57,138 nt of DNA from Polyangiales bacterium (GCA_046351535.1 JAXLYG010000023.1:128001-185138); one strand, 5' to 3'; shown: positions 15,199 through 41,943, counted from the stretch's first letter. Numbers and translations: made by a program. Notes: generated by a model from the letters alone, not told the origin.

Positions 15199-15303
15199 CA
15201 ACCCGGTTGTCTCAGAACGCCGCCCCGGCGTCATCGGAGTACGATCGCCGCGCGACGCGACGTTGCCCGAGGCGCGACGACGTCACCGCGAGGGAGCCCC
15301 ACC

Positions 15304-16164: not shown

Positions 16165-16783
16165 ACCCGTCGCGCCCGAGGTCGTGGAACTCGGCCTCGA
16201 GCGCGGCGAAATCGACGACCATCACGCAGGGGTCGTGGGGGCGGTAGAGCGTCCCCGCGTTGAGCACCGTGAGGTGATCGAAGCGGCGGACCATGCGCGT
16301 GTGCGTGTGGCCGCCGAGCATCCAGCGCACGTCGCCCGCGCCGTGGAGGCGCCAGAGCGCGGTGTTGTTCTCGAGGCCGTAGCCGTAGTCGTCGGGCTTG
16401 AGGCAGGCCATGTCGTCGCGGCCGATGCCGTGGCAGAGCAGCGCGGGGCCCGCGTCGGTCTCGAAGGCCCACGTCTCGGGGAGCCCTGCCAGAAAGGCGT
16501 TGGCGCGCTCGGACACGGCTTCGAAGCGCGTCCACTCGGGCACGAAGCGCTCGCCGCCCGCGAGGAACCACCGCTCGTGGTTGCCCCGCACGCAGACGAC
16601 CCCGCGCGCCTGGAGGAGCTCGCAGGTGCGCTCGGCGTCGCCGGGCCCGTCGACGATGTCGCCGACGCAGAGCACGGCGTCGAGCGACATCGCGTCGAAG
16701 TGGCGCAGCGCGAGGTCGAGGGAGGCGTCTTCGGTGTGGACGTCACCGATCACACCGACGCGACGGAGGGTTCTCTGTGACAC
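16130..16783 (-). CDS. calcineurin-like metallophosphoesterase
   Basis: Motifs GDVH, GDIVD, GNHE and GHTH. 217 aa. Its 3' end overlaps the convergent E2-like gene by 35 nt. Confidence 0.75.
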   Translation of the reverse strand: MSQRTLRRVGVIGDVHTEDASLDLALRHFDAMSLDAVLCVGDIVDGPGDAERTCELLQARGVVCVRGNHERWFLAGGERFVPEWTRFEAVSERANAFLAGLPETWAFETDAGPALLCHGIGRDDMACLKPDDYGYGLENNTALWRLHGAGDVRWMLGGHTHTRMVRRFDHLTVLNAGTLYRPHDPCVMVVDFAALEAEFHDLGRDGFSLSTRVALRP

Positions 16784-18859: not shown

Positions 18860-19037
18860 GTCTTCCTCCAACGAAACGGACGTTTCGTGGGCGCGCTCCG
18901 CTGCAAGTACGGTGCGCACGCACTGCGGCCGTAGAAGCGCCCACATCGCCGCCCATCTCGCGCACATTCATCGCAGGCGTTCGTGCGGCGGGTCAAGCGG
19001 TGCGCGGCCCCCGCGAGGGTTTCCGTCTGCCCCAAGT

Positions 19038-26983: not shown

Positions 26984-27811
26984 ATGACCCCGCGTACCCG
27001 CTGGTGGCGCGAGCCCGCGCTTCATTTCGTGCTCCTCGGCGCCGGGGTGTTCGCCCTCGACGCGTGGCGACGCCCGAGGGCCTCTCCGCGCGACGTCGAG
27101 GTCTCGGCCACCTACGTGACCGGCCTGCGCGAGGAGTACACGCGGCGCTACGGCCGCGCGCCGACGCGCGACGAGCTGCGCGCCGAGGTCGACCGCTTCG
27201 TCCGCGAGGAGGTGCTCTACCGCGAGGCCCTCGCGCTCGGCCTCGACCGCGGCGACCTCATCATCCGAAGGCGCCTCGTGCAGAAGATGGAGTTCTTTCT
27301 CGAAGACGTCGCGCCGCCGCGGAGCCCTTCAGACGAGACCCTCGGGGCCTATCTCGCAGCCCACGCCGACCGCTACGCGTCGCCGCCGAGGGTGAGCCTG
27401 CGCCACGTCTTCTTCGACCGCGGTCGACGCGGCGCGCGCCTCGACGCCGACGCCCGCGCGGCCCTCGCGGCGCTCCGTGGCGGGGCCGATGCAGCGACGC
27501 TCGGCGATCCCTTCGTGAGCGGGAGTTCCATCGTCGACGCGGAGGTGTCGCGCGTGGCGGGCGACTTCGGCGACGGCTTCGCGCGCGCCGTCGAGGGCCT
27601 CTCGACGGGGAGCTGGCAGGGGCCCGTGGCGTCGTCGTACGGGCTCCACCTGGTGCTCGTCACGGCGCGCGCTGCGGGGACGGCGCGGCGCCTCGACGAG
27701 GTGCGCGATCGGGTGATCTCAGACTGGCGCGTCGACGACCGCGAGCGGGCCAACCGCGAGGCGTACCGCCGCGTCGCCGAGACCTACCGCGTGCGCGTGG
27801 AGGGGCTGTGA
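26984..27811 (+). CDS. parvulin/SurA-like peptidyl-prolyl isomerase family protein (weak)
   Basis: ATG immediately after the stop of the DUF3604 gene (TGAATG). N-terminal TM/signal anchor. The C-terminal region GSWQGPVASSYGLHLVLV resembles a PpiC-type PPIase core. The assignment is tentative. Confidence 0.45.
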   Translation: MTPRTRWWREPALHFVLLGAGVFALDAWRRPRASPRDVEVSATYVTGLREEYTRRYGRAPTRDELRAEVDRFVREEVLYREALALGLDRGDLIIRRRLVQKMEFFLEDVAPPRSPSDETLGAYLAAHADRYASPPRVSLRHVFFDRGRRGARLDADARAALAALRGGADAATLGDPFVSGSSIVDAEVSRVAGDFGDGFARAVEGLSTGSWQGPVASSYGLHLVLVTARAAGTARRLDEVRDRVISDWRVDDRERANREAYRRVAETYRVRVEGL

Positions 27812-28830
27812 GGGCGCGCGTCGCGGCGCTTCTTGCGGCGCTGATCGCGGCGCCCACGGTGGCGCGCGCGCACGGGTTCTCGCCCGCCTACCTCGAACTT
27901 CGTGAGCGCGCCGACGGCAGGGTCGAGGTGCTCTGGAAGGTCCCCCTCGCGGGCGAGGGCGGCGTCGAGGGGAGAGAGCCCGTGAGCGTGCGCCTCCCGC
28001 GCGCGTGCCGCGAGGTCGCGCGCAGGGAGCCCGCGAGCGTTCCGGGGGCCGTGATCGATCGCTACGCGGTCGACTGCGGACCGGGCGGAATCGGCGGCGC
28101 GACGGTCACCCTCGTGAGCCCCGAGGGACGCGGCTGCGACGTGATGGTCTCGCTGCGCTTCGCCTCGGGGCAGCGATACACCGGGCTCCTGCGCGCGGGC
28201 GCGGCCTCGCTGGAGCTTCCGCGGTCGACGGGCGGGTCCGCGTGGCGCGTGGCGAGGAGCTACCTCGGCGAGGGCGTGAAGCACATCGCGACGGGCGCCG
28301 ATCACCTGCTCTTCGTGCTCGGGTTGCTGCTCCTCGTGCGAGGCGTCGGCGCGCTCATTCGAACGGTGACCGCGTTCACCGTGGGGCACAGCGTGACCCT
28401 CGCCCTCGCGACGCTCGGCGTCGTGCGGATGCCCTCGGCGCCCGTCGAGGCCGTCATCGCCCTCAGCATTCTTCTGCTGGCCGTCGAGCTCTCGCGCGAG
28501 GGTGACGGCGAGACCCTCACGCGGCGCGCTCCGTGGCTCGTGGCGGGCGGCTTCGGGCTGCTCCACGGCTTCGGCTTCGCGGGGGCGCTCATGGAGGCGG
28601 GGCTCCCGGCGCGGAACGTTCCCCTCGCGCTGCTGTTCTTCAACGTGGGCGTCGAGCTCGGGCAGGTGGTCTTCGTGGCCTTCGCGCTCGCCGCGCTCGC
28701 CGCCGTGAAGCGCCTCTCGCGCGATCGTTCGGACACCGTACGATCGGCGCTCACCTACGGCATCGGCGCGGCGTCGACCTACTGGTTTCTCATGCGATTC
28801 GCTGTCGTCGCAGGATGGTTCGAACCCTGA
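27808..28830 (+). CDS. HupE/UreJ-family membrane protein with N-terminal periplasmic domain
   Basis: GTG start overlaps the stop of the preceding gene (GTGA). Signal peptide and a 130-aa soluble domain. TM region with HLLFVLGLLLL, TVGHS and HGFGFAGAL, which are HupE/UreJ signatures. Confidence 0.65.
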   Translation: MRARVAALLAALIAAPTVARAHGFSPAYLELRERADGRVEVLWKVPLAGEGGVEGREPVSVRLPRACREVARREPASVPGAVIDRYAVDCGPGGIGGATVTLVSPEGRGCDVMVSLRFASGQRYTGLLRAGAASLELPRSTGGSAWRVARSYLGEGVKHIATGADHLLFVLGLLLLVRGVGALIRTVTAFTVGHSVTLALATLGVVRMPSAPVEAVIALSILLLAVELSREGDGETLTRRAPWLVAGGFGLLHGFGFAGALMEAGLPARNVPLALLFFNVGVELGQVVFVAFALAALAAVKRLSRDRSDTVRSALTYGIGAASTYWFLMRFAVVAGWFEP

Positions 28831-28852
28831 ACGATCGGCGCGATCCGCCGCC

Positions 28853-30688
28853 TCACGCAGCGTCGCGCGGGATCGTCACGGTGAAGGTGCTCCCCGCCCC
28901 CGGCGCGCTCTGCACGCGGAGCTCGCCGCCGTGTTGCAGCACGATCTCTCGCGCGATGCTCATGCCGAGGCCGTGCCTCCACCCGCCCGACTGCGTGGGG
29001 CGCTGCCGCGCGGTCTCGCTGTCGAGCATGCGCGCGAGCTCGTCGACGGCGACCCCTTCGCCCGTGTCGACGATCGAGATCGAGAGCGCGCGCTCGTCGC
29101 ACGCGGCGCCGAGCGTGACGCTGCCTCCCGCGGGCGTGTGACGGATCGCGTTCGAAACGATGTTCGCGAGCACGATGCTGATCTTCTCGACGTCGAGCTC
29201 GACGTCGGGCAGGGCGCCGGGCTCCGTGAGGTCGAGCGAGACGCCCTTGTCGCGCGCGATGGCGCGGTGCATCTCGATGGCCGAGAGGAGCAGGCGCCGC
29301 GGCTGCACGGCCGTGCGTCGGAGGTCGCCTGCCTCGGTCTCGATGCGCACGAGGTCGAGGAGCTCGTCGACGAGCGCGCGGAGGCGCTCGGTGTCGTCGC
29401 GCGCGGAGGTCACGATCTCGCGCTGCGTGTCGGTGAGCGCGCCCGCGGATGGTTCGAGGAGCAGGTGCGTCGCCATGCGCAGCGAGGTGAGCGGCGTCTT
29501 GAACTCGTGGCTCACGGTGGCGACCATGTCGCTCTTGAGCTCGTCGATGCGGCGAAGGCGCGTGACGTCTTGCGCCACCACCACGGCCCCGCGAAGCGTC
29601 GCGCCGTCGCCCCGCAGCGGCGCCGCGCGCACGAGGAAGTACCGATCGCCGCCGCGGTCGCGCCAGCGCATCGCCTCGGAGAGGTTGCGCGGCGTGACGG
29701 GGCGCCCCGCGGCGAGCACCTCGTCTCGGGCGCGCGCGAAGGCCTCGGGGAGCGAGGCGTCGCGTGAGGGGGCGCCCTCGGCGTCGGCGCGGAGTCCGAA
29801 GGTGCGCACGGCGGCCTCGTTGGCGAGGAGCACGGCGTCGCCCTCGCCGCACACGACCACGGGGTCGACGAGGCAGCGCACGGTGGCGTCGGCGAGGTCC
29901 TGCGCGGCGCGGAGCTCGCCGAGGGAGCTCGCGCGGTACGCCCGCAGCCGCGTGAGCATCTTCTGGAACGACTCGACGAGGGGCGCCAGCTCGCGCACCT
30001 CGGGGTCTTCGATCACCACGTCGAGCTCGCCGTCGCCGATGGCCTTCGCCGCGTCGGAGAGCGCGCGGATGGGCCGCACGATGCCCGAGGGGACGCGCCA
30101 CGCGACCCACAGCGCGAGCGCGAGCGCCGCGGCCACGAGCGCGAGGGTCGTGAGCGTGCTCCGGCGCGCGAGGGCGCGGGCGTCGCGGTCGGCGGCCTCC
30201 ATCGCGGCCTGGTTCATGTGTCGCACGGCGAGCACGGCCGCCTTCACGCCCGCGAAGCGCGGGAGGAGCTCGCGGAGGTAGGTCGCGCGGCGCCCCGGCT
30301 CGGGGCTCGCGAGCGCCTCGTCGACGGCCGTCACGTAGGCCCGATAGCGCGCTTCGAGCGCGTGCACGGCGGCGCCCTCGGCGGCCAGGGTGATGTTCGA
30401 AGCCTCGACGCGAAAGGCCGTCTGAAAGCGCGCGCGGTGCTGTTCGAGCATCGTCCGCGCGATGTCGTCGCGGCCCGTCGACGCGAGGAGCGCCGCGGAG
30501 TCGAGGCGCTCGAGGGCCTCGTTCATCGCGTCGCAGGCCACGACGGAGCGGTAGTTCTCGCGGAGGATCGTGTCGATGGCGCCGCCGAGGCGCGTGAGCG
30601 AGACCATCGCCGAGCCCGCCACGACGGCGAGCGCGACGGTGATCGCCGCGAGGGCGAAGGTGACGCGGGCGCGCAGCGAGCGTTGCAT
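28853..30688 (-). CDS. membrane sensor histidine kinase (2 TM, periplasmic loop, HAMP, HisKA, HATPase)
   Basis: TM1 near the N-terminus and TM2 TLTTLALVAAALALALWVAW, followed by HAMP. H-box SHEFKTPLTSL, N-box LANIVSNAIRH, G1 DTGEGV, G2 GLGMSIA. Confidence 0.8.
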   Translation of the reverse strand: MQRSLRARVTFALAAITVALAVVAGSAMVSLTRLGGAIDTILRENYRSVVACDAMNEALERLDSAALLASTGRDDIARTMLEQHRARFQTAFRVEASNITLAAEGAAVHALEARYRAYVTAVDEALASPEPGRRATYLRELLPRFAGVKAAVLAVRHMNQAAMEAADRDARALARRSTLTTLALVAAALALALWVAWRVPSGIVRPIRALSDAAKAIGDGELDVVIEDPEVRELAPLVESFQKMLTRLRAYRASSLGELRAAQDLADATVRCLVDPVVVCGEGDAVLLANEAAVRTFGLRADAEGAPSRDASLPEAFARARDEVLAAGRPVTPRNLSEAMRWRDRGGDRYFLVRAAPLRGDGATLRGAVVVAQDVTRLRRIDELKSDMVATVSHEFKTPLTSLRMATHLLLEPSAGALTDTQREIVTSARDDTERLRALVDELLDLVRIETEAGDLRRTAVQPRRLLLSAIEMHRAIARDKGVSLDLTEPGALPDVELDVEKISIVLANIVSNAIRHTPAGGSVTLGAACDERALSISIVDTGEGVAVDELARMLDSETARQRPTQSGGWRHGLGMSIAREIVLQHGGELRVQSAPGAGSTFTVTIPRDAA

Positions 30689-30698
30689 CGTCGTCGCC

Positions 30699-32039
30699 TC
30701 AGCGAAGGCCGTAGCGCTCGCGCTTGCGGTAGAGCGTCGAGGGGTCGATGCCGAGGGCCTTCGCCGCGGCGTCGAGGGAGGGCGTCCGCGCGAGCACGTC
30801 GGCGATGTGCCTGCGCTCGGCCGCTTCGAGGGAGTCGTCGTCGAGGGCCGCGGCCGCGGGCGCGCCGCCGCGAATCTCTTCGGGCAGGAGGTCGGGCGTG
30901 ATCGTGTCGCTCTCGCAGAGGATCACCGCGCGCTCGATGACGTTCGCGAGCTCGCGCAGGTTGCCGGGCCAGCGGTACGCGCAGAGGGCCGCGCGCGTGG
31001 CGGGGGCGAGCGTGAGGGCGCCGCGGCGGTGCTGCGCGCCGAGGTCGGCCACGGCGGCGGCGCAGAGGTCGGCGAGGTCTTCGCGGCGCTCGCGCAGCGG
31101 AGGGAGCGTGGCGGACACGACGTCGAGCCTGAAATACAGGTCTTCGCGGAAGTTCCCCGCGGCGACGGAGGCCTTGAGGTCGCGGTGCGTGGCGGCGATC
31201 ACGCGGGCGTCGAAGCGCCGCGGCTCGGAGTCTCCGACGCGCACGTACTCGTGCTCCTCGAGGAGCCGCAGGAGCTTGCCCTGCGCGTCGCGCGGGAGGT
31301 CGCCCACCTCGTCGAGGAAGAGGGTTCCGTTGCCCGCGGCCTCGACGTGTCCGACGCGTCCGCGGTCGGCGCCGGTGAAGGCCCCCTTCGCGTGTCCGAA
31401 GAGCTCGCTCTCGACGAGCGAGGCCGCGACGACGGCGCAGTTGAAGGTCACGAAGGGCCGGTCGCGGCGCGGCGAGAGCGCGTGGATGTGCCTCGCGAGG
31501 AAGCCCTTTCCCGTACCCGTCTCGCCGAGGAGGAGGATCGTCGCGTCGGTCATCGCGGCGCGCGTGGCGACGGCGAGGCACTGCTGCATGGCGGGGCTCC
31601 GCGTGTCGAAGCGCGCGCGCACGCCGCGGCCGCCCGCGCGCTTGAGCTCCGCCAGCTCGTGCTGGACGCGCGCCTGCGAGAGCACCTTCTCGACGGCGTG
31701 GAGCACCTGCGCCGGGGTGAAGGGCTTGGCGAGGTAGTCGACGGCGCCCGCGCGCATCGCGTCGACGGCGTTGTCGATCGTGGCGTACGCGGTCATCAAG
31801 ATCACGGCCGTCGCGGGCGCGTCGTGGGCGAGCGCGCGCACCACGGCGAGGCCGTCGAGGCCCGGCATGCGCAAATCGACGAGGGCCACGTCGGGCGGCG
31901 CGCGCCGCGCGGCGGCGAGGCCCGCCTCGCCGTCGGGCGCGAGGGTAACGTGGTAGCCCGCGCCTTCGAGGCACACGCGGAGCATCATGCGGATGTTGGC
32001 CTCGTCGTCGACGACGAGCACGCGGCCGCTGGCGCTCAT
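30699..32039 (-). CDS. sigma-54-dependent response regulator (NtrC family: receiver + AAA+ + Fis HTH)
   Basis: ATG at 32039 (MSASGRVLVVDDEANIRMML). Walker A GETGTGKG, the sigma-54 contact motif ESELFGHAKGAFTGA (GAFTGA), and a C-terminal HTH LGIDPSTLYRKRERYG. Confidence 0.85.
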   Translation of the reverse strand: MSASGRVLVVDDEANIRMMLRVCLEGAGYHVTLAPDGEAGLAAARRAPPDVALVDLRMPGLDGLAVVRALAHDAPATAVILMTAYATIDNAVDAMRAGAVDYLAKPFTPAQVLHAVEKVLSQARVQHELAELKRAGGRGVRARFDTRSPAMQQCLAVATRAAMTDATILLLGETGTGKGFLARHIHALSPRRDRPFVTFNCAVVAASLVESELFGHAKGAFTGADRGRVGHVEAAGNGTLFLDEVGDLPRDAQGKLLRLLEEHEYVRVGDSEPRRFDARVIAATHRDLKASVAAGNFREDLYFRLDVVSATLPPLRERREDLADLCAAAVADLGAQHRRGALTLAPATRAALCAYRWPGNLRELANVIERAVILCESDTITPDLLPEEIRGGAPAAAALDDDSLEAAERRHIADVLARTPSLDAAAKALGIDPSTLYRKRERYGLR

Positions 32040-32992
32040 CGCGCGGCCTCGCGGGCGTCGAGGAGGGCCGCGGCGTCGAGGGGCGGATCGGCGGTGAGCG
32101 GTCCGTCGCCAAGGCGCGCGAGGAGCGGGCCGATGCGCTCGGGGCGGGCGTCGGTGAGGCACAGCGCGAAGGCCTCGGAGCCCCGCGCGCGGAGGTGCAT
32201 CGCGGGCGGCGTGTTGAGGGAGAGCGAGGCGGTCATCACGGTGATCCTCGGTTCGTCGGAGGGCGCGTCGACGCGCCGATGGTGCTCCGAAACGTGCTGC
32301 GGCACATGGGAGAATCGCGCGTCGAGGGAATCGACGGGGCGCGCGCCCTCGTAGCGCGCGACGCGGGCGATGGCCTCGTGGAGGTCGATGCCGAGGTCGT
32401 CGTCGCGGCGCAGCGCGAGGGCGGCGCGGTAGCCGCGGAGGGCGTCGTCGTCGCGTCCTTCGAGCTCGGCGCGGAGGGCTTCGAGCGAGAGCACCTCGGC
32501 GTCGAGGGGGGCGCGGGCCCAGGCGCGCGCGAGGGGCGCCGCGGCGCGCGCGGGGGCGTTCTGCGAGAGGGCGACGGAGGCCGCGCGCACGGCCGCGGCG
32601 TGGTCGAGCGACGAGGTCTCACCGGGCGCGGCGCGGACGAGGGTGCGCGCCACGGCGTCGCGGAGCTCGGTGGGGGTGAAGGGCTTGGGGAGCGCCTCGT
32701 ACACGCCGAGTCTCAGGAGCTCGACGAGCACCGGCGCCGTGAGCGTGGTGCCCGTCACGATCACCGCGACGCGGGGGAACTGCGTTCGAAGCAGGCGCAC
32801 CTCCTGAAGCGGCGCGCCGTCGCCCGCGAGCTGATCGATCACCGCGAGTTCGAAGGCCTCGTCGTCGAGGAGCACGCGGGCGTGTCGAACGGAGGCGAAC
32901 TCCTCGACGGTGTACCCCGCGGCCGTGAGGGCCCGGTCGAGCATGGTCCGCCCCGAGGCGTCGGGCTCCACGACGAGCAGACGGCGGGTCAC
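32036..32992 (-). CDS. orphan response-regulator receiver protein with long Ala-rich C-terminal extension
   Basis: GTG at 32992 overlaps the stop of the KdpD-N gene (GTGA). Its own stop overlaps the ATG of the sigma-54 regulator (ATGA). Receiver core LLVVEPD...VIDQ...KPF. No recognisable output domain. Confidence 0.55.
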   Translation of the reverse strand: MTRRLLVVEPDASGRTMLDRALTAAGYTVEEFASVRHARVLLDDEAFELAVIDQLAGDGAPLQEVRLLRTQFPRVAVIVTGTTLTAPVLVELLRLGVYEALPKPFTPTELRDAVARTLVRAAPGETSSLDHAAAVRAASVALSQNAPARAAAPLARAWARAPLDAEVLSLEALRAELEGRDDDALRGYRAALALRRDDDLGIDLHEAIARVARYEGARPVDSLDARFSHVPQHVSEHHRRVDAPSDEPRITVMTASLSLNTPPAMHLRARGSEAFALCLTDARPERIGPLLARLGDGPLTADPPLDAAALLDAREAAR

Positions 32993-34155
32993 GGCGACTC
33001 CGTGGTGCCGGGGTCGTCTTCGCGGGTGCCGACCACGAGCACGTCGACCTCGGGCGCCGTGCGCATGAAGCGATCGAGCACCGAGCCCAGGAGCCGGTCG
33101 CGCCACGCGGATCTGCGCGAGCGACCGAAGACCGCGTGGGTGATCCCGCGCTCACGGGCGAAGCGCGCGAGGGCCTCGGCCACGTCGCCGCCTTCGAGGC
33201 GAACGACCTCGGCGCCGAGCTCCTTCGCGAGCCGGATGTTCTCGGTGAGCGAGCGGAGGGCGGCGGTCTCGATGCGCTCGGGGGTCTCGTCGCGGGTGCG
33301 CACGTACACGACGAACCAGCGGCTGTTGAGCCCGCCCGCGAGGCGCGCGCCCTGACGGAGAAGCCTCCGCGTGGCGCTCGGGGCCGACGACATCGAGACC
33401 ATGACGCGCTCGGCGTCGACGACGGAGAGCGGTCCGCGAGTCTCGTCGCGTCCGCGCGTGGCGTTGGCGCGCGCCCTCGCCCGCTGCTCGACGGCGTTGG
33501 CGACCTCGCGCAGCGCGAGCTGACGGAGCGCGGTGAGGTTGTCGGCGCGAAAGAAGCCCTGCAGCGCCCGCTCGACGCGCGCGGGGGGGTAGACCTTGCC
33601 CGCGCGGAGGCGCTCTTGAAGCTCGTCGGGCGCGAGGTCGACGACGACGATCTCGTCGGCGCGGTGAAGCACCCGGTCGGGCACGCGCTCTCGCACGTCG
33701 ACGCCGGTGGCCCTCAGCACGAGGTCGTGGAGGCTCTCGAGGTGCTGCACGTTGAGGGCGGAGAGCACGCTGATGCCCGCGGTGAGGAGGGTCTCGACGT
33801 CCTGGTGGCGCTTCTCGTTGGTGCTGCCGGGCACGTTGGTGTGCGCGAGCTCGTCGACGACGGCCACGTCGGGCTTGCGCGCGAGCACGGCGGCGAGGTC
33901 CATCTCTTCGAGGGGTACGGCGCGGTACTCGAGGGTGCGTCGGGGGATGATCTCGAGGCCCTCGGTCTCGTCGACGGTCTCCTTGCGGCCGTGCGTCTCG
34001 ACGAAGGCGCACACGACGTCGACGCCCTCGTCGCGGAGGCGCCGCGCGTCGCGCAGCATGGCGACGGTCTTTCCGACGCCCGCGGCCATGCCGAGAAAGA
34101 CCTTGAGCCTCCCCTGCCTGGCCGTGCGGAGCCCGTCGAGAAACGAGTCGCCCAT
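32989..34155 (-). CDS. kdpD: KdpD N-terminal sensor domain + universal stress protein domain (stand-alone; no kinase domain)
   Basis: N-terminal Kdp-type P-loop region RLKVFLGMAAGVGKTVAMLRDARRL...VVCAFVETHGRKETV. C-terminal USP domain (VMVSMSS...FVVYV...AHAVFG). Ends without TM, GAF or HisKA domains. Confidence 0.75.
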   Translation of the reverse strand: MGDSFLDGLRTARQGRLKVFLGMAAGVGKTVAMLRDARRLRDEGVDVVCAFVETHGRKETVDETEGLEIIPRRTLEYRAVPLEEMDLAAVLARKPDVAVVDELAHTNVPGSTNEKRHQDVETLLTAGISVLSALNVQHLESLHDLVLRATGVDVRERVPDRVLHRADEIVVVDLAPDELQERLRAGKVYPPARVERALQGFFRADNLTALRQLALREVANAVEQRARARANATRGRDETRGPLSVVDAERVMVSMSSAPSATRRLLRQGARLAGGLNSRWFVVYVRTRDETPERIETAALRSLTENIRLAKELGAEVVRLEGGDVAEALARFARERGITHAVFGRSRRSAWRDRLLGSVLDRFMRTAPEVDVLVVGTREDDPGTTESP

Positions 34156-34191
34156 CGCGTCACGCGCTCTCTCGCAGGGGTCTCACCAGGG

Positions 34192-34431
34192 TCACGGTCG
34201 CCTCGCGCGAAGCCATCGCATCACGACGACGAGGGTCACGGCCACGAGCATCGCGGCCAGCGTGTCGACGCTCCCGATGATGCTCCGCGCGCGCAGCACG
34301 GTGTAGAGGTGCGCGGCGGTCGACGCGCCTGCGAGCAGCCACACGACCACCTCGTAGCGGGCGAGCGTGCGGTCCTCCTCCTCTTCGGGCGACTTTGGCT
34401 CCATGGGCTTCACGGGGAGGGTCGGGAGCAC
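34192..34431 (-). CDS. small hypothetical membrane protein (79 aa)
   Basis: Two hydrophobic stretches (VVVWLLAGASTAAHLYTVL; LAAMLVAVTLVVVM). Lies between the porin and kdpD-N genes. Coding status is uncertain. Confidence 0.3.
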   Translation of the reverse strand: MLPTLPVKPMEPKSPEEEEDRTLARYEVVVWLLAGASTAAHLYTVLRARSIIGSVDTLAAMLVAVTLVVVMRWLRARRP

Positions 34432-34549
34432 ACCGGGTGCCGTCGGCCACGACCGCGCGATTCGGGGCCTGCGCGCGTCGCGGTCGTGCGAATTGCACGA
34501 AGTCCCACGGCGGTGACCGTGCGCCGCCGCACGGCGATCTGGGAGCGGG

Positions 34550-35785
34550 TCAGAACCACGCGGTCATTCCGAGGGTGAGGGTGTCTTGCGCGCGGGCGTT
34601 GGCGACGGGCGCGTGCGTCGTCGCGTCGTTCGAGACGGCGCCGCGAAAGTACGTGTCTCCGTCGGCCTGATCGTGGCGGTACTCGAGGCGCATCGAGACG
34701 TTGTCGTGGGGGCGCGCGTCGACGGTGAGGGTCTGCGAGCTCACCCAGGCCGAGGGCCAGAAGATCGACGACGCCGCGCCCGACGCGTTGCTCGGGACGC
34801 TCTCGTAGAAGGCGTCACCGCGCGCGGCGACGAAGAGCCACGGGCGCACCCTGACGCGCGCGTAGAGGGCCCCGGCGCCCCACCACGACACGCCGAAGGC
34901 GTTCGGTTCGAAGCCTCCGTTGGCGTGCGCGAGGAGCGACAGCCACGGCGTCGGATAGAGCGCCACGTAGGCGTCGAAGACGCTGCGCCACGGGGTCGAG
35001 CCCGCGCGCTCGGGGGCGCCCGCGGCGCGCTCGACGCCGCCGAAGTAGAGCGCGTGAACCGTGATCCGATCGGTCACGACGTAGTCGAGCGCGACGGAGA
35101 CGGACTTCTCGTCGTTGTTGTCGACGACGCTGTTCCAGCCGTTGTAGCCCGCGAGCGAGAGGGTCGTGCGGTCGCCGAGGGGATACGAGAGCCGCGCGCC
35201 CGTGTGATAGAACGGGAGGCCGAAGAAGAGGTTCGAGCGCGACCAGTTCCACTGGTCCTTCACGGCCATCCCCTCGGGGCCGATGGGCGAGAGAAAGATC
35301 CCCGCTTCGACGAGGAGCCCCGCGCCCACGGGGGCACGCCACGCGACGGTGGCCTGCTGGATGAACTTCCACACGTTGCTGTTGCTCGCGCCCGCGCCGC
35401 TCGCCCCGGCGAACGAGGGCTCGCCGAGGTAGTACGACTCGGGCGTGTGCCCGAACTGCAGCGCGAGGTGCGCCGTGACGGGTCCGAGCGTCCCCGTGGC
35501 GTCGAGCACCACGTTCGAAAGCGTCACCGCGTTGTGTCGATTGTCGAAGCCGCGATAGTTCGTGATGCCGTTCGAGGGCGCGTTGAAATTCCACTGGTAG
35601 AAGGTCTCGACGTAGCCCGAGAGGGTGATGTCGGGTCGCGCGGCGCTGCGAGACGTCCCCTCCGACACGTTCGCGACGGGCGCCAGGGTGGGTGTCGCCG
35701 CGTCCGTGCTCTGCGCCGACGCCGCGCGCGCGCAGAGCGATCCGATCGTCGCGAGCGCGCTCGCGAGCCTCCGTGAAAGTCTCAT
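34550..35785 (-). CDS. outer-membrane beta-barrel porin, kdp-associated
   Basis: Signal peptide (ALATIGSLCARAASAQ). Alternating beta-strand pattern rich in aromatic and Gly residues. Ends with ...TLGMTAWF, a C-terminal Phe typical of OMPs. Lies between kdpC and kdpD-N. Confidence 0.6.
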   Translation of the reverse strand: MRLSRRLASALATIGSLCARAASAQSTDAATPTLAPVANVSEGTSRSAARPDITLSGYVETFYQWNFNAPSNGITNYRGFDNRHNAVTLSNVVLDATGTLGPVTAHLALQFGHTPESYYLGEPSFAGASGAGASNSNVWKFIQQATVAWRAPVGAGLLVEAGIFLSPIGPEGMAVKDQWNWSRSNLFFGLPFYHTGARLSYPLGDRTTLSLAGYNGWNSVVDNNDEKSVSVALDYVVTDRITVHALYFGGVERAAGAPERAGSTPWRSVFDAYVALYPTPWLSLLAHANGGFEPNAFGVSWWGAGALYARVRVRPWLFVAARGDAFYESVPSNASGAASSIFWPSAWVSSQTLTVDARPHDNVSMRLEYRHDQADGDTYFRGAVSNDATTHAPVANARAQDTLTLGMTAWF

Positions 35786-35813
35786 CGGTGATCTCCGTGT
35801 TCGCGGTCGGCGG

Positions 35814-36398
35814 TCAGCGCCCCGCGCGGGCGTCGAGGTCGAGGTTGAGCGCGAGCACGTTCACGCGGGCCTCGCCGAAGAGCCCGAGCGTGCGACCTTC
35901 GGTGTGCTTCGCGACGAGCGCGCGCAGCGAGGCCTCGGACATCGCGCGGGCCCTCGCCACGCGAGGGACCTGCACCTCGGCCGCCGCGGGGGAGATGTGC
36001 GGATCGAGTCCGCTCGCGCTCTTCGTCACGAGGTCGACGGGGATCGTGCCCGTGACGCCCGTGGCGCGGAGCGCGGCGACGCGAGCCGAGACCTCGTCGG
36101 TGAGCGAGGGGTTGAGCGGCCCGTAGTTGCTGCCCGACGAGTACGTGACGCCCGTCGCGCCGTCGACCGTCGCGGCCGAGGGCCTCCCCCAGAAATACTC
36201 GGGGTGCGCCGACGGATCCGCGAAGGTCTGACCGATCAGCATCGAGCCGCGCACGCGGCCGTCGCGCGCGATCAGGCTCCCGTTGGCCTCGCGCGGAAAC
36301 GCGGCCTGCGCCACGCCCGTGACGAATGCGGGATACGCCGCGCAGCAGAGCGCGAGGAGGAACGCGGTCACCACCAGACAGGGACGAATGAGCTTCAT
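35814..36398 (-). CDS. kdpC: potassium-transporting ATPase subunit C
   Basis: 194 aa. N-terminal TM helix. Conserved KdpC blocks (SGSNYGPLNPSL, SASGLDPHISPAAA). Directly downstream of kdpB. Confidence 0.85.
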   Translation of the reverse strand: MKLIRPCLVVTAFLLALCCAAYPAFVTGVAQAAFPREANGSLIARDGRVRGSMLIGQTFADPSAHPEYFWGRPSAATVDGATGVTYSSGSNYGPLNPSLTDEVSARVAALRATGVTGTIPVDLVTKSASGLDPHISPAAAEVQVPRVARARAMSEASLRALVAKHTEGRTLGLFGEARVNVLALNLDLDARAGR

Positions 36399-36413
36399 CG
36401 AAACACCAACCTC

Positions 36414-38528
36414 TCAAGCCAGTCCGAGCGCGCCGACGACCACGTCGATGGCCTTGATCGCGACGAAGGGCGCGACGACGCCACCCGCGCCGTAGACCAC
36501 GAGGTTCCGCCGCAAGAGGGCCGCGGCGCCGAGGGGGCGATACGCGACGCCGCGCAGCGCCAGGGGGATCAGCGCCACGATCACGAGCGCGTTGAAGATC
36601 ACCGCCGAGAGGATCGCGCTCTGCGGCGAGCCGAGGCGCATCACGTTGAGCGCCCAGAAGTGCGACGAGTGCGCGTCGCCGCGCGTCGTCTGAAAGGCCA
36701 CGAGGCCCGTGAACATCGCGGGCAGGATCGAGAAGTACTTCGCGACGTCGTTGGAGACCGAGAAGGTCGTGAGCGCGCCGCGCGTCATCAGGAGCTGCTT
36801 GCCGATCTCGACGACCTCGATGAGCTTGGTCGGGTCGCTGTCGAGGTCGACCATGTTGCCGGCCTCCTTCGCGGCCTGCGTGCCGGTGTTCATCGCGACG
36901 CCCACGTCGGCGCGCGCGAGGGCCGGCGCGTCGTTGGTGCCGTCGCCCGTCATCGCGACGAGGCGCCCGCCCTCCTGCATCTTGTGGATGTAGGCCCGCA
37001 TGGCCTCGGGGGTGGCCTCGGCGAGGTAGTCGTCGACGCCCGCCTCGGCGGCGATCGACTTCGCGGTGAGGGGGTTGTCGCCCGTCACCATCACGGTCTT
37101 GATGCCCATCGCGCGGAGGCGTTCGAAGCGCTCGCGCATGCCGGGCTTCACCGTGTCTTTGAGGTAGACCACGCCGAGGAGGCGCGGGCCGTCGGCCACG
37201 ACGAGGGGCGTTCCGCCGACATTGGCGACGCGGTCGACGAGGCCCTGGAGGTCCGCGGGGATGTCGGCGTTGGCGCGTCCGCCGACGTGCGAGAGCACCG
37301 CGTCGCTGGCGCCCTTTCGAAGCACGCGGTCGCCCGCGTCGATGCCGCTCATGCGGGTGCGCGCGGTGAAGGGCACGAACACGCTGCCCGCAGGGAGCGA
37401 CGGCGTCACGCCCATGCGCTCGGCGAGCGCGACGATGCTCCGCCCCTCGGGGGTCTCATCGGGGAGCGACGAGAGCGCCGCCACCGCCGCGAGCTCGCGC
37501 ACCTCGACGCCCTTCACGGGGAGAAACTCCGCCGCCTGGCGGTTCCCGTAGGTGATGGTGCCGGTCTTGTCGAGCATGAGCACGTCGATGTCGCCCGCGG
37601 CCTCGACGGCGCGACCCGAGGTGGCGAGCACGTTGTGCTGCACGAGCCTGTCCATGCCCGCGATGCCGATGGCCGAGAGCAGGCCGCCGATGGTCGTGGG
37701 GATGAGGCACACGAGCAGCGCGACGAGGGCGCCCACGCCGAGCGATCCGCCGAAGAAGCGCGCGAGCGCGTCGAGCGTGACCGTCGCCACGAGGAAGATC
37801 AGCGTGAGGCCCGCGAGGAGGATCGTGAGGGCGATCTCGTTGGGCGTCTTCTGCCGCTCGGAGCCCTCGACGAGGGCGATCATCCGGTCGACGAAGCCGC
37901 CGCCGGGGTCCTGCATCACCTCGATCTTGAGCCAGTCGCTCGTGACGCGCGTGCCGCCGGTGACCGCGCTGCGATCGCCGCCGGCCTCGCGCACGACGGG
38001 TGCGCTCTCGCCCGTGATGGCGCTCTCGTCGACGGAGGCGATGCCCTCGATGATCTCTCCGTCGGCGGGGATGAGCCCTCCGGCGGCCACGTACACGACG
38101 TCGCCGCGCTTGAGGTCCGCGGCGCTCACCTCGCCGCCCGTCGTGGGGTCGGGGCCGGCCGCGAGCGGGGTCTCGTCGCCCGCGTGACGGATGCGCCGCG
38201 CGGTGGTGGTCGTGCGCATCTTGCGGAGCGTGGCGGCCTGGGCCTTTCCGCGTCCCTCGGCCATGGCCTCGGCGAAGTTGGCGAACAGCACCGTGAACCA
38301 CAGCCACGCGATGAGCTGCGCGTTGAAGCGCACGTCGACGTGGGCGCCGCGCGCGAGGTCGTAGACGAAGAGCGTCGTGACGAGGAGGCTCCCCACCTCG
38401 ACGACGAACATCACGGGGTTCTTCGCCATGACGCGGGGGTCGAGCTTTCGAAGCGCGTCGACGAGGGCGGAGCGGACGATCTTCGCGTCCCAGAGCGACG
38501 CGGAGCGGTGTACCGGATGGGTTGTCAT
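36414..38528 (-). CDS. kdpB: potassium-transporting P-type ATPase subunit B
   Basis: 704 aa. Phosphorylation motif DKTGTIT and hinge [13 protein letters not shown] (GDGxND). TM helices typical of KdpB. Confidence 0.9.
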
Positions 38529-38537
38529 GGGTGGTGC

Positions 38538-40304
38538 CTATGCGTGACCGAGCATGAAGTGCTCGACGATCGGACCGAGCGAGAGGGCCGGGAAGAAGGT
38601 CAGCGCGCCCACCACGACGACCACGCCGACGAAGAGCCCGACGAAGAGCGCGCCGTCGACGGGAAAGGTCCCGGGCCCCGCGGGCACGAGGCGCTTCTTC
38701 GCCATGTTCCCCGCGATGGCGAGGGCCGCGACGATGAGCGGAAAGCGCCCGACGAACATCCCGAGGGCGAGCGTGAGCGAGTAGAAGACCGGGTGCGCGT
38801 CGGAGTACGCCGTGAGCCCCGCGAAGGCGCTGCCGTTGTTGCCCGCCGCCGAGCTGAACGCGTAGAGCATCTCCGAGAGCCCGTGCGGGTGCGGGTGCCA
38901 CGCGGGGCCCGGCGCGCCCTGCGACGCGACGTTCAAGACGCCCGCGCGCCCCGCCTCGGTGAGCGCCGCGACCGCCGTCAGCCCGAGGATCGCGAGCGCC
39001 GACACGAGGATGTAGATCGACGCGAAGCGCATGTCGCGGCTGTCGATCTTCTTGCCGAGGTACTCGGGCGTACGGCCCACCATGAGGCCCGCGAGAAAGA
39101 CCGCGATGATCACGTACACGAGGGCGCCGTAGAGCCCCGCGCCGACGCCGCCGAAGACCACCTCGCCGAGCTGGATGTTGAGCATCGGGATGAGCCCGCC
39201 GAGGGGCGTGAAGCTGTCGTGCATCCCGTTGACCGCGCCGCACGACGCGTCGGTGGTGACCGCGGCGAACAGGGCCGTGTCGGCGATGCCGAAGCGCAGC
39301 TCCTTGCCCTCCATGTTGCCGCCGGGCGAGAGGGCGCTCGCGACCTGGTCGACGCCGAGGTGCGAGAGCAGGGGATTGCCCTGCTGTTCGAAGCGCGCGA
39401 GGAGGGCGATGCCCGCGATCGAGAGGATCGCCATCGCGACGAAGAGCGCGGCGCCGTGGCGTCGGTTCTTGAGCGTCTCGCCGAGCGTCACGCAGAGCGC
39501 CGCGGGGAGCGCGAAGATCGAGAAGACCTCGACGAGGTTCGTGAGCGGCGAGGGGTTCTCCCAGGGGTGCGCGCTGTTGGCGTTGAAGAAGCCGCCGCCG
39601 TTGGTGCCGAGCATCTTGATGGCCTCCTGCGAGGCCACGGGGCCGCGGACGATCGACTGCGCGGCGCCGTCGAGCGTGGTCCAGTGCGCGGCGCCCGCCC
39701 ACGTCTGCACGACGCCCTGCGAGACCAGGAACACCGCGTAGACGACGCTGAGCGGCACGAGCACGTAGAGGTGCGCGCGCACGAGGTCGACCCAGAAGTT
39801 GCCGAGCTTGTCGGTCTCGCGGCGCGCGATTCCGCGCAGGAGCGCGATGGCGACGCAGAGCCCGACGGCCGCGGAGAAGAAGTTCTGCGACGTGAGCGCG
39901 ACGGACTGCGACGCGAGGCTCATCGTCGTCTCGCCGCCGTAGCTCTGCCAGTTGGTGTTGGTCGTGAAGCTCGTCGCGGTGTTGAACGCCAGCCACGGCG
40001 CCACGGCCCCGAGGCGCGAGGGGTTCATCGGCAGCGCCGACTGCGCGCGCATCAACACGTAGGTGATGAGCTGCGTGAAGGCCGAGAAGCCGAGGAGCGC
40101 GAGGGCGTACTGCTTCCAGTCGTGCTCGTCGGCGGGGTCGATGCCCGCGGCGCGGTAGAGGGCGCGCTCGACGGGGCCAAAGAGGCGCGCGCCGAGGTGG
40201 CGCTCCCCCGCGAACACGCGGGCGATGTAGCGGCCGAGGGGCACCGCGACGGCGGCGAGGAGGGCGAAGTACACGGCGATGACGGCCCACATGCGCGGGG
40301 TCAT
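38538..40304 (-). CDS. kdpA: potassium-transporting ATPase subunit A
   Basis: 588 aa polytopic membrane protein with KdpA selectivity-region motifs (TNGGGFFNANSAHPWENP, TAAGNNGSAF). Sits between kdpF and kdpB. Confidence 0.9.
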   Translation of the reverse strand: MTPRMWAVIAVYFALLAAVAVPLGRYIARVFAGERHLGARLFGPVERALYRAAGIDPADEHDWKQYALALLGFSAFTQLITYVLMRAQSALPMNPSRLGAVAPWLAFNTATSFTTNTNWQSYGGETTMSLASQSVALTSQNFFSAAVGLCVAIALLRGIARRETDKLGNFWVDLVRAHLYVLVPLSVVYAVFLVSQGVVQTWAGAAHWTTLDGAAQSIVRGPVASQEAIKMLGTNGGGFFNANSAHPWENPSPLTNLVEVFSIFALPAALCVTLGETLKNRRHGAALFVAMAILSIAGIALLARFEQQGNPLLSHLGVDQVASALSPGGNMEGKELRFGIADTALFAAVTTDASCGAVNGMHDSFTPLGGLIPMLNIQLGEVVFGGVGAGLYGALVYVIIAVFLAGLMVGRTPEYLGKKIDSRDMRFASIYILVSALAILGLTAVAALTEAGRAGVLNVASQGAPGPAWHPHPHGLSEMLYAFSSAAGNNGSAFAGLTAYSDAHPVFYSLTLALGMFVGRFPLIVAALAIAGNMAKKRLVPAGPGTFPVDGALFVGLFVGVVVVVGALTFFPALSLGPIVEHFMLGHA

Positions 40305-40306
40305 GG

Positions 40307-40396
40307 TCAGAACCTCTCGGGTCGAGCGAGCACGTAGAACAGGTAGAGCGCGAGCCCCGCGGCGGTCGCGAGGCCGAGGATCACGTCGAGGCTCAT
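40307..40396 (-). CDS. kdpF: potassium-transporting ATPase subunit F (29 aa)
   Basis: MSLDVILGLATAAGLALYLFYVLARPERF matches the KdpF pattern (single TM, YL.Y.L..PE.F). It is the C-terminal part of a longer shadow ORF, immediately upstream of kdpA. Confidence 0.6.
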   Translation of the reverse strand: MSLDVILGLATAAGLALYLFYVLARPERF

Positions 40397-40401
40397 GGCG
40401 G

Positions 40402-40485
40402 TCACATCCGGTCGAAGAGCGTCACGAGGCCCGCGGTCGCCGCGTAGAGGCACGCCGTGAGCGCGAGGATCAGCAGGTCGGTCAT
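40402..40485 (-). CDS. additional 27-aa single-TM micro-protein upstream of kdpF
   Basis: Hand translation of the reverse strand gives ATG...TGA MTDLLILALTACLYAATAGLVTLFDRM. It ends 6 nt before kdpF. Below the ORF-track size cutoff. Confidence 0.3.
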   Translation of the reverse strand: MTDLLILALTACLYAATAGLVTLFDRM

Positions 40486-40698
40486 GCCCGCGCTCTCTCC
40501 ACGCCTCGTGCCGAGACCTGGAATCACAGCGATTTCTGCGATCTCGCGGGCGCCTCGTGCAGCGCTGCACGATCGCCGCGAGGGCCCCTCGTGCGGGGTC
40601 GCACGGCCTCACGCGGCACGGCGCCCGCGCGTCTGACGTCGCCGCGGACGAGAACGCGCGCCTCGCGAGGGCAGAGCGCGGGTACACTCGCGGCCCCC

Positions 40699-41943
40699 AT
40701 GGCACAGGTACGCGAACTCACGAACGCTCTCTGGAACGGCTCCCTCGACACGACGGACGCGCACCCCTTCACGGCCCTCGTGGGCCTCGAGGAGTACCGC
40801 CCCGGCCTCGCGTTCGTGTCGAGCCTGGCCAACGTCATCGCCGCGCGCACGGGCGAAGGCATCGTGCTCATCGACACGGGGAGCTTTCTCTCCGGCGAGA
40901 TGATCCGCGCGCAGCTCCGCGAGTGGTCGACGGACGCGATTCACACGGCGGTGTACACGCACGGCCACGTCGATCACGCGACGGGCATCGGCGCCTTCGA
41001 AGCCGAGGAGAGGCCCGCGAACGCTGCGCCCATGCGCGTCGTGGCGCACCGCGCGGTCAACGCCCGCTTCGCGCGGTACAAGCGCACCGCGGGGTACAAC
41101 GGCGCGATCAACGCGCGGCAGTTCCGCGCGGCGTTGGATTGGCCCACGGAGTACCGCGCGCCCGACGCGGTCTACGACGACCGCCTCGACCTCGACGTGG
41201 GCGGCGTGCGCTTCGAGCTCCACCACGCGCGCGGCGAGACCGACGACCACACGTGGCTCTGGATCCCCGAGCACCGCGCGGTCTGCACGGGCGACCTCTT
41301 CATCTGGGCCTCGCCCAACTGCGGCAATCCCCAGAAGGTGCAGCGCTTCGCGGGCGATCAGGCCGAGGCGCTCGACCGCATGGCCGCCCTCGACGGAGAG
41401 CTTCTCTTTCCCGGTCACGGCCCCGCGATCGAGGGCGCGGCGCGCGTGCGTGAGGCGCTCACGACGACGGCGGCGCTCTTGCGGTACCTCCACGACGAGA
41501 CCGTGGCGCGCATGAACGAGGGCGCCTCGCTCGACGCGATCATCGCGAGCGTCAAGGCCCCGAAGGAGCTGCTCGAACGCCCCTGGCTGCGGCCCGTGTA
41601 CGACGAGCCCGAGTTCGTGGTGCGCAACGTGTGGCGTCAGTACGGCGGCTGGTGGGACGGCGACGCCTCGCGGCTCAAGCCCGCGCGCGACGAGGCCCTC
41701 GCGAAGGAGATCGCGGCGCTCACGGGCGGCGCGTCGAAGCTCTCGTCGCGCGCAGCGGAGCTGTCGTCGCAGGGCGAGCACGCGCTCGCGTGTCACCTCG
41801 CGGAGTGGGCCGCGCGCGCCGCGCCCGAGGACGCAGACGTCGCCGCGACGCGGTCGGAGATCTACGCGCGCCGCGCGGAGTTCGAGACGAGCCTCATGGC
41901 GAAGGGTGTGTACTTCGACGCTTCGAACACGAAGCCGCGGTAG
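40699..41943 (+). CDS. alkyl/aryl-sulfatase-like MBL-fold hydrolase (SdsA1/BDS1-like core, no SCP2 tail)
   Basis: ATG at 40699 (MAQVRELTNALWNGS...). MBL motif YTHGHVDHATG, then ETDDHTWLWIPEHRAVCTGDLF and the dimerisation region typical of alkyl sulfatases. 414 aa. Confidence 0.6.
   Translation: MAQVRELTNALWNGSLDTTDAHPFTALVGLEEYRPGLAFVSSLANVIAARTGEGIVLIDTGSFLSGEMIRAQLREWSTDAIHTAVYTHGHVDHATGIGAFEAEERPANAAPMRVVAHRAVNARFARYKRTAGYNGAINARQFRAALDWPTEYRAPDAVYDDRLDLDVGGVRFELHHARGETDDHTWLWIPEHRAVCTGDLFIWASPNCGNPQKVQRFAGDQAEALDRMAALDGELLFPGHGPAIEGAARVREALTTTAALLRYLHDETVARMNEGASLDAIIASVKAPKELLERPWLRPVYDEPEFVVRNVWRQYGGWWDGDASRLKPARDEALAKEIAALTGGASKLSSRAAELSSQGEHALACHLAEWAARAAPEDADVAATRSEIYARRAEFETSLMAKGVYFDASNTKPR

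Follow-up and report, generated by a model that had tools for sequence, protein, structure and literature searches.

We analysed a 57,138-nucleotide stretch of DNA from a Polyangiales bacterium (GCA_046351535.1, JAXLYG010000023.1:128001-185138), referred to below as the window (57 kb, G+C content 72%), in which positions 28853-40485 hold a potassium-uptake locus built around kdpFABC. All coordinates are window positions, and all genes of the locus lie on the minus strand. Gene identities were obtained by searches with hidden Markov models (HMMs) from Pfam and NCBIfam; the genes which an earlier note on this DNA had described from the sequence were real and in the places given there, and two conserved small membrane open reading frames (sORF1 and sORF2) that it had overlooked were added. 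The nearest relatives are assemblies of Polyangiales (Myxococcota), with 87% identity for the KdpD N-terminal protein (KdpD-N/USP) in locus L001 and 93% for the receiver protein in P0001; loci of relatives are cited below by L numbers. An exact look-up of the KdpD-N protein in the assembly collection gave no match. Taken together, the genes appear to form two autoregulated sigma-54 units under joint control, sORF1-kdpFABC-porin and sORF2-KdpD-N/USP-receiver protein-activator-kinase, which comprise the following genes:

40403-40485, minus strand: sORF1, 27-aa hydrophobic peptide (peptide conservation in relatives)
40307-40396, minus strand: kdpF (PF09604 35.6 bits, TIGR02115)
38538-40304, minus strand: kdpA (PF03814 762 bits, TIGR00680 718 bits)
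36414-38528, minus strand: kdpB, P-type ATPase (TIGR01497 991 bits)
35814-36398, minus strand: kdpC (PF02669 230 bits)
34550-35785, minus strand: BBP2/OmpL-like porin (PF07642 197 bits)
34192-34404, minus strand: sORF2, protein of about 70 aa with two transmembrane (TM) segments (weak or positional homologues)
32989-34155, minus strand: KdpD-N and Usp protein, 388 aa (PF02702 309 bits, PF00582)
32036-32992, minus strand: receiver-TPR-C-terminal domain (REC-TPR-CTD) protein, 318 aa (PF00072 40 bits; alignment and structure models)
30699-32039, minus strand: NtrC-type activator (PF00158 215 bits, PF00072 101 bits, PF25601, PF02954 (HTH_8))
28853-30688, minus strand: membrane histidine kinase (HAMP, PAS, HisKA and HATPase, two hydrophobic segments)

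The regulatory genes are tightly packed: those for KdpD-N/USP and REC-TPR-CTD overlap in GTGA, those for REC-TPR-CTD and the activator in ATGA, just as had been described, and 10 nt separate the activator gene from that of the kinase. The absence of an OmpR-type KdpE was likewise borne out for the window, as no locus protein matched Trans_reg_C and no further receiver, KdpD-like or OmpR-type gene was detectable by tblastn elsewhere in the 57 kb.

Gene products of the locus

All four Kdp subunits exceed the cut-offs of equivalog HMMs (TIGR02115, TIGR00680, TIGR01497 and NF001454/TIGR00681), and the translation of KdpB carries both the catalytic DKTGT (in LDKTGTIT) and the TGES of the A-domain (in ITGESAP). 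The outer-membrane porin gene reported between kdpC and the KdpD-N/USP gene was confirmed by its match to PF07642 (197 bits with a cut-off of 26.2, model positions 2-335 of 339), and its N-terminus is a signal peptide, with ...ARAASA/QS visible in the translation. Homologues of this porin adjoin kdpC in L002/L061, L057, L058 and in loci of Acidobacteria, and the gene is linked to kdp in the majority of the Polyangia loci as well as in many from Acidobacteria. In the latter, a BBP2-like porin stands between kdpC and KdpD-N in L021, L032, L038, L044-L048 and L055, so that a kdp-linked porin is not confined to Myxococcota. Only the last 28 codons remain in L001 (5432-5515) and L003 has no porin, from which it follows that the porin is dispensable in some lineages. 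Literature searches on a kdp-linked porin gave nothing relevant.

Position 40485, the end coordinate given in the earlier note, is not the start of kdpF (40307-40396) but that of sORF1, a separate ORF for 27 aa (40403-40485) directly upstream of kdpF and the first ORF of the kdp unit. Its peptide, MTDLLILALTACLYAATAGLVTLFDRM, is kept in six Polyangia relatives (L001, L002/L061, L003, L059 and L062), with MPDLWVLALTLVSFAAAWGFVRLCDAI as the counterpart in L059 and MLDIWIIVLTLGLFGVAAGFVRVLERL in L062; no match was found in Pfam or NCBIfam, and the peptide is perhaps an additional small subunit of Kdp. The other small gene, sORF2, opens the regulator unit and is situated in the 394-bp gap that precedes KdpD-N/USP. 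It has positional or weak sequence homologues in L001 (5647-5865), L058 (8554-8826) and L062 (2940-3275), and no Pfam match.

The N-terminal and Usp domains of KdpD are indeed encoded alone (PF02702 and PF00582): the protein stops after the Usp domain and has no TM, GAF or kinase domains. Residues 3-382 align to positions 11-379 of the 895 positions of NF007793, and the score with NF038185, the NCBIfam model for KdpD-like non-kinase potassium sensors, is 369 bits, which is below the cut-off of 550. Walker A (GMAAGVGKT) and Walker B (VVDE, within VAVVDELAHT) can be read in the translation. The Usp domain reads RQGAR-LAGGLNSR-WFVVY, i.e. the Escherichia coli-type motif RXXXR-X8-WXAVY, which has been distinguished from the cyclic di-AMP (c-di-AMP) motif of Staphylococcus aureus, SXS-X20-FTAXY (PMC4686210); the latter does not occur in the translated Usp domain of the window. 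The KdpD N-terminal domain has been described as an atypical serine kinase that phosphorylates S162 in the TGES of KdpB and thereby inhibits the pump, which was demonstrated with KdpD-N of E. coli and KdpD/Usp of Deinococcus, and proteins with KdpD and Usp domains only are a recognised class, found mostly in species without KdpE, with the Deinococcus member driven by c-di-AMP (PMC11018627). Because of this homology, and because Walker A/B and the TGES of KdpB are retained, the protein of the window is most likely also an atypical serine kinase inhibiting KdpB, and not the sensor of a two-component pair. Two tandem KdpD-N/Usp paralogues are present in many loci of Acidobacteria and Nitrospirae (L017, L020, L021, L027-L032, L034, L036-L040, L051, L053 and L055).

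The adjacent gene, previously taken for that of a single-domain orphan receiver, instead encodes 318 aa, and the match to Response_reg is confined to residues 6-114. According to a family alignment and to two AlphaFold models (predicted local distance difference test (pLDDT) 89.7 and 91.0), the protein consists of a receiver (residues 1-121), a TPR domain and an alpha/beta domain (residues 218-317). The middle part has the superhelix of helix-turn-helix repeats by which TPR domains are recognised, and no recognisable relative was found for the C-terminal domain. The receiver is probably phosphorylatable, judging from E9, D11, D53 and K103, which are invariant in 32 members of the family. This family is small, with 72 matches in a word-indexed search and 73 when 1.84 billion representatives were searched exhaustively with a profile; strong matches to nearly the full profile either share the REC-TPR-CTD architecture or are fragments, and the few members whose source is named come from Polyangia (Minicystis and Byssovorax). 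Its gene overlaps that of KdpD-N by 4 nt in all of the full-length loci covered here, namely those of the window, L002/L061 and L057-L060.

The next gene product is an NtrC-type sigma-54 activator, as had been proposed, composed of a receiver, an AAA+ domain (Sigma54_activat) and HTH_8; HMMs and the translation, which contains HAKGAFTGADRG, confirmed both the class and the intact GAFTGA. For the kinase, the HAMP domain and two hydrophobic segments of the earlier description stood, and a PAS domain had been overlooked: the order is TM1, a helical periplasmic region of about 145 aa, TM2, HAMP, PAS, HisKA and HATPase. Pfam searches found no Hpt (histidine phosphotransfer) domain in nine locus proteins. 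A sensor-less kinase of 213-251 aa, consisting of HisKA and HATPase, is inserted with 4-nt overlaps between the genes for REC-TPR and the activator in four relatives (L057, 11002-11643; L058, 10999-11697; L059, 10399-11154; L062, 5057-5713), and its H-box is similar to the one in the membrane kinase. We also considered whether this small kinase is the lost C-terminal half of KdpD, and rejected the idea since its matches to generic HisKA kinases are better than those to KdpD. It is absent from the clade of the window, which we conclude has lost it.

Promoters, palindromes and gene order in relatives

The palindrome CGTGC-N6-GCACG occurs in exact form three times in the 57 kb, with 0.54 occurrences expected, and all three copies are located in the two promoter regions of the locus. 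Together with the promoter-like elements they are arranged as follows:

40590-40605, minus strand: distal enhancer-like palindrome of the kdp unit, CGTGCGACCCCGCACG; exact match, position kept in L001, L002 and L003
40556-40571, minus strand: proximal enhancer-like palindrome of the kdp unit, CGTGCAGCGCTGCACG; exact match, centre 51 bp upstream of the -24 GG
40498-40513, minus strand: -24/-12-like element of the kdp unit, CGGCACGaggcGTGGa (CGGCACGaggcGTGG at 40513-40499); sole match to YGGCAYG-N4-KTG in the window
34518-34533, minus strand: distal enhancer-like palindrome of the regulator unit, CGTGCGGCGGCGCACG; third exact match in the window
34485-34499, minus strand: proximal palindrome of the regulator unit, CGTGCAATTCGCACG, with an N5 spacer; centre 50.5 bp upstream of the -24 GG
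34427-34442, minus strand: -24/-12 element of the regulator unit, CGGCACccggtGTGCt (GGCACccggtGTGC at 34441-34428); one of two matches to GGYAY-N5-KTGC in the window

Matches to the -24/-12 consensus thus appear on the expected strand and in the expected two gaps. Of the places suggested earlier for a minus-strand element, the one upstream of kdp holds CGGCACGaggcGTGG behind two exact palindromes, while motif scans gave no match in the 28-nt gap upstream of the porin gene (35786-35813). The regulator unit has the better element, of the form GG-N10-GC, preceded by two palindromes 50 and 84 bp upstream, the N5 variant lying 34 bp downstream of the exact copy at 34518-34533. In the kdp element, the -24 part (GGCACG) is good and the -12 part reads TGG and not TGC; relatives have TGC (L003, L059 and L062) or TGA (L001 and L002). 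The -12 element ends only about 13-15 nt before the start codon of sORF1 in the window and in L002, and the predicted transcript would therefore be nearly leaderless in both.

In alignments with L001-L003, the motif blocks form islands of conservation amid diverged flanks. The kdp element is aligned and conserved in all three of these loci; that of the regulator unit is conserved in L001 and has equivalents in front of the regulator unit in L002/L061, L057, L058 and L062. The centre of the proximal palindrome stands 50-52 bp from the -24 GG in seven of seven kdp promoters and also in the regulator promoters of the window and L062, and the two palindromes of a pair are spaced by 32-35 bp. In L062, the kdp unit (sORF1-kdpF) and the regulator unit (sORF2-KdpD-N) are divergent, with one palindrome pair between them and an outward-facing GG-N10-GC element for each. 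No sigma-70 consensus was matched in 28700-40800, which is weak evidence at 72% GC.

Similar motifs were also seen elsewhere in the loci of relatives. In L057 (Minicystis), GG-N10-GC elements beside kdp (15161-15283, 16152-16255 and 18906-18919, minus strand) lie in front of three genes, which encode 77 aa, a HATPase-only protein and a CorA-like protein, the first two elements being paired with the same palindrome, which suggests a larger regulon in this organism. Two tandem copies of the palindrome between a gene for a Kup (K_trans) potassium transporter and a 412-aa gene in L059 (17258-17316) hint that the activator also controls a second potassium uptake system there. In L058 (Byssovorax), GGCAAC/GGCGAC hexamer repeats occupy 8270-8370, just upstream of the enhancer of the regulator unit, and the 95-aa gene called over these repeats is probably spurious.

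In each full-length locus with REC-TPR, the KdpD-N/USP gene directly precedes it, and the sigma-54 activator and HAMP-PAS kinase follow; the order KdpD-N to REC-TPR is also seen in the shorter loci L001, L003, L004 and L062. With the exception of L060, kdp adjoins the regulator module in all REC-TPR loci, in four arrangements:

Regulators downstream of kdp: window, L001, L003 and L059
Regulators upstream of kdp: L002/L061
Convergent kdp and regulators: L057 and L058
Divergent kdp and regulators: L062

The linkage, whose absence from relatives had been named as a point that would speak against a joint function, is thus kept through four gene orders, and its survival of such rearrangement argues for a functional unit. 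Among the loci retrieved outside Polyangia (from cyanobacteria, Acidobacteria, Hyphomicrobium and actinobacteria), none had an AAA+ activator near KdpD-N; a metagenome scan contributed two useful loci only. Palindromes, promoter-like elements, positional conservation and linkage in relatives together support the proposal of the earlier note that the control of kdp is routed through sigma-54.

The surrounding genes, encoding a peptidyl-prolyl isomerase, a HupE/UreJ-family protein, an alkyl-sulfatase-type metallo-beta-lactamase and an extracytoplasmic function sigma factor, are unrelated to kdp. The gene of the HupE/UreJ-family membrane protein (28084-28830, plus strand) is convergent to that of the kinase and ends 22 nt from the kinase stop codon; the 1178-aa ORF listed over it (25294-28830, plus strand) is an artefact of high G+C. 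An Rfam scan found no riboswitch, c-di-AMP riboswitches included, and tRNA genes were not found either.

Proposed mechanism and alternative explanations

From the observed gene content, motifs, geometry, conservation and synteny, we infer the protein-protein, protein-DNA and phosphotransfer steps of the following mechanism. The membrane kinase (2TM-HAMP-PAS) would sense potassium limitation or turgor and phosphorylate the receiver of the activator, which would in turn bind the pairs of CGTGC-N5/6-GCACG palindromes about 50 bp upstream of the -24 element. By remodelling the sigma-54 holoenzyme at both promoters, the activator would raise pump and regulators together, with positive autoregulation. 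Judging from homology and retained motifs, KdpD-N/USP would phosphorylate the TGES serine of KdpB and so switch the pump off post-translationally, and the porin may give potassium a path through the outer membrane. The REC-TPR-CTD protein would be a second substrate of the locus kinase or kinases, most likely relaying the kinase state to KdpD-N via its TPR domain, or else draining phosphate. We estimate a probability of roughly 60% for this reading as a whole, i.e. a high-affinity potassium uptake locus of two sigma-54-dependent units with a shared enhancer motif, operating by the mechanism outlined here.

Several observations weigh against it. The numbers of -24/-12-like matches in the window are no higher than expected by chance, and what argues for sigma-54 is therefore their position, their conservation and the fact that they are paired with the palindromes; moreover, the -12 of the kdp element (TGG, and TGA in L001/L002) departs from the near-invariant TGC. 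In L060, the 10 kb around the module contain no kdp genes, and neither a palindrome nor a promoter could be recognised in the 305 bp upstream of it. The periplasmic region of the kinase has no Pfam match and belongs to no recognisable family. Most relatives have the small extra kinase that the window lacks, so the ancestral circuit was more complex than our model, and the window may have a reduced form of it. Finally, as regards the putative contact between REC-TPR and KdpD-N, the profile search of 1.84 billion representatives returned no protein in which TPR-CTD is fused to KdpD-N or to any other domain.

For the REC-TPR-CTD protein, relay to KdpD-N would be the most likely option, although it is also the weakest step of the mechanism, and we suggest only tentatively that the protein is a trans-acting coupler through which one membrane kinase sets both kdp transcription and the activity of KdpD-N/USP on KdpB. 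If so, the locus would contain KdpD, a tandem serine/histidine kinase, in disassembled form, with a phosphorylated receiver in place of the link within one molecule, and this would explain how a potassium signal reaches kinase-less KdpD/Usp proteins that lack the c-di-AMP motif. Another account, which we consider doubtful, makes KdpD-N/USP and REC-TPR the sensory input of the small sensor-less kinase, feeding the same activator, much as the kinase in the C-terminal part of E. coli KdpD is modulated by the N-terminal half; with the small kinase lost from the window, the branch would there be vestigial or rewired to the membrane kinase. The chain of 4-nt overlaps that joins KdpD-N, REC-TPR, the small kinase and the activator in L057, L058, L059 and L062 and the similarity between the H-boxes of the two kinases agree with this, and there is a precedent in the Nmp system of Myxococcus xanthus, where a kinase controls a second kinase via a receiver upstream of an NtrC-like regulator (PMC11841059). 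However, the small kinase is not specifically KdpD-like, and the window, L002/L061, L003 and L060 keep KdpD-N and REC-TPR intact and coupled without it, so the pair must have a function that is independent of the small kinase. It is less probable still that REC-TPR is a mere phosphate sink or an unrelated output of the kinase, with KdpD-N/USP controlled independently, for instance by a nucleotide bound to Usp. In its favour, phosphate-sink receivers have been proposed in myxobacterial multi-component systems (NmpT, PMC11841059), and the Deinococcus KdpD/Usp protein is under the control of c-di-AMP (PMC11018627); yet a sink requires neither a conserved TPR domain nor a conserved extra domain, the overlap with KdpD-N is retained in all full-length loci, and the Usp motif is of the E. 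coli type and not the c-di-AMP type of S. aureus (PMC4686210).

The His-Asp phosphorelay favoured by the earlier note, running from the kinase to the orphan receiver and on to the sigma-54 activator with KdpD-N/USP as a gating potassium sensor, is very unlikely. It would be in keeping with the 4-nt overlaps joining the KdpD-N, receiver and activator genes and with the phospho-acceptor residues retained by the receiver. Phosphotransfer between two receivers requires an Hpt or DHp (dimerisation and histidine phosphotransfer) intermediate, however, and the locus proteins include no Hpt domain; the activator owns a complete receiver and has its kinase gene 10 nt downstream, and the TPR and C-terminal output domains mean that the receiver protein is not a bare relay module. 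Nor is a gate needed, since the KdpD-N module is, according to published work, an atypical serine kinase that has KdpB as its target (PMC11018627). Most improbable of all, in our estimate, is that the -24/-12-like elements and palindromes are non-functional, kdp being transcribed from a housekeeping-sigma promoter and the activator-kinase pair controlling other genes. The deviating -12 of the kdp element, the chance-level counts and the lack of nearby kdp genes in L060 would fit such a situation, but the places, orientation and distances at which both motif types occur, their conservation across genera and the single palindrome pair shared by the divergent promoters of L062 are difficult to reconcile with it, and the missing sigma-70-type consensus in 28700-40800 adds a little, weak as it is at this GC content.

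Comparison with known systems

About one quarter of the species that have Kdp lack a full-length KdpD, and many of them also lack KdpE (PMC11018627). For the control of kdp transcription and the potassium input to the KdpD-N/USP kinase in such species, the locus offers a different circuit, conserved in relatives, for which an enhancer and two sigma-54 promoters are predicted and which includes a candidate for a coupling protein. Literature searches on kdp regulation in myxobacteria gave nothing relevant. The E. coli KdpD/KdpE system has the same target, kdpFABC, and homologous KdpD-N and Usp domains with a similar Usp motif; unlike E. coli KdpD, the protein of the window has no four-TM, GAF or DHp-CA (catalytic) domains, the window has no OmpR-type KdpE, and its predicted combination of sigma-54 and an AAA+ activator contrasts with sigma-70 and a winged-helix activator in E. 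coli. With the KdpD/Usp-only kinases (DgKdpD of Deinococcus geothermalis and the cyanobacterial non-kinase KdpD; PMC11018627), KdpD-N/USP of the window has in common the two domains, Walker A/B, the proximity to kdpC and the TGES of KdpB. It differs from this class in its score below the NF038185 cut-off, in the lack of the S. aureus-type c-di-AMP motif and in its coupling to a receiver-TPR protein, which KdpD/Usp-only systems do not have.

The NmpRSTU system of M. xanthus (PMC11841059) is comparable as a myxobacterial multi-component circuit in which two kinases and an additional receiver protein accompany an NtrC-like activator that binds palindromes upstream of sigma-54 promoters and regulates its own expression, an arrangement that is predicted for the window. 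Nmp, however, responds to oxygen, has another regulon and includes both a REC-kinase hybrid and a protein with two receivers; the window has the REC-TPR-CTD protein and its KdpD-N/USP partner instead.

A close parallel in gene content is the operon DVU3334-DVU3339.1 of Desulfovibrio vulgaris Hildenborough, which likewise combines kdpFABC, a KdpD-N and Usp protein, a separate kinase and a GAFTGA regulator and has no KdpE. The response regulator DVU3334 was placed by DAP-chip upstream of its own operon, which encodes kdpFABC, the KdpD-N and Usp protein DVU3336 and the kinase DVU3335 (PMC3333781), and it has been listed as a sigma-54 regulator of potassium uptake (PMC4641369). Sigma-54 control of kdp together with a split KdpD is therefore already published for D. 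vulgaris (PMC3333781, PMC4641369). The Desulfovibrio operon has neither REC-TPR nor a porin, no small ORFs have been reported for it, and its order is KdpD-N, kinase, activator, whereas the window has two separate predicted promoters with a defined palindrome geometry. What is new here is the Polyangia-restricted REC-TPR-CTD partner of a kinase-less KdpD, the defined enhancer architecture, the accessory porin and the small ORFs. The BBP2 porin accompanies kdp in Myxococcota as well as in Acidobacteria, and to the one precedent for sigma-54 control of kdp, that of Desulfovibrio, the locus adds a probable case from another phylum in which the accessory genes differ.

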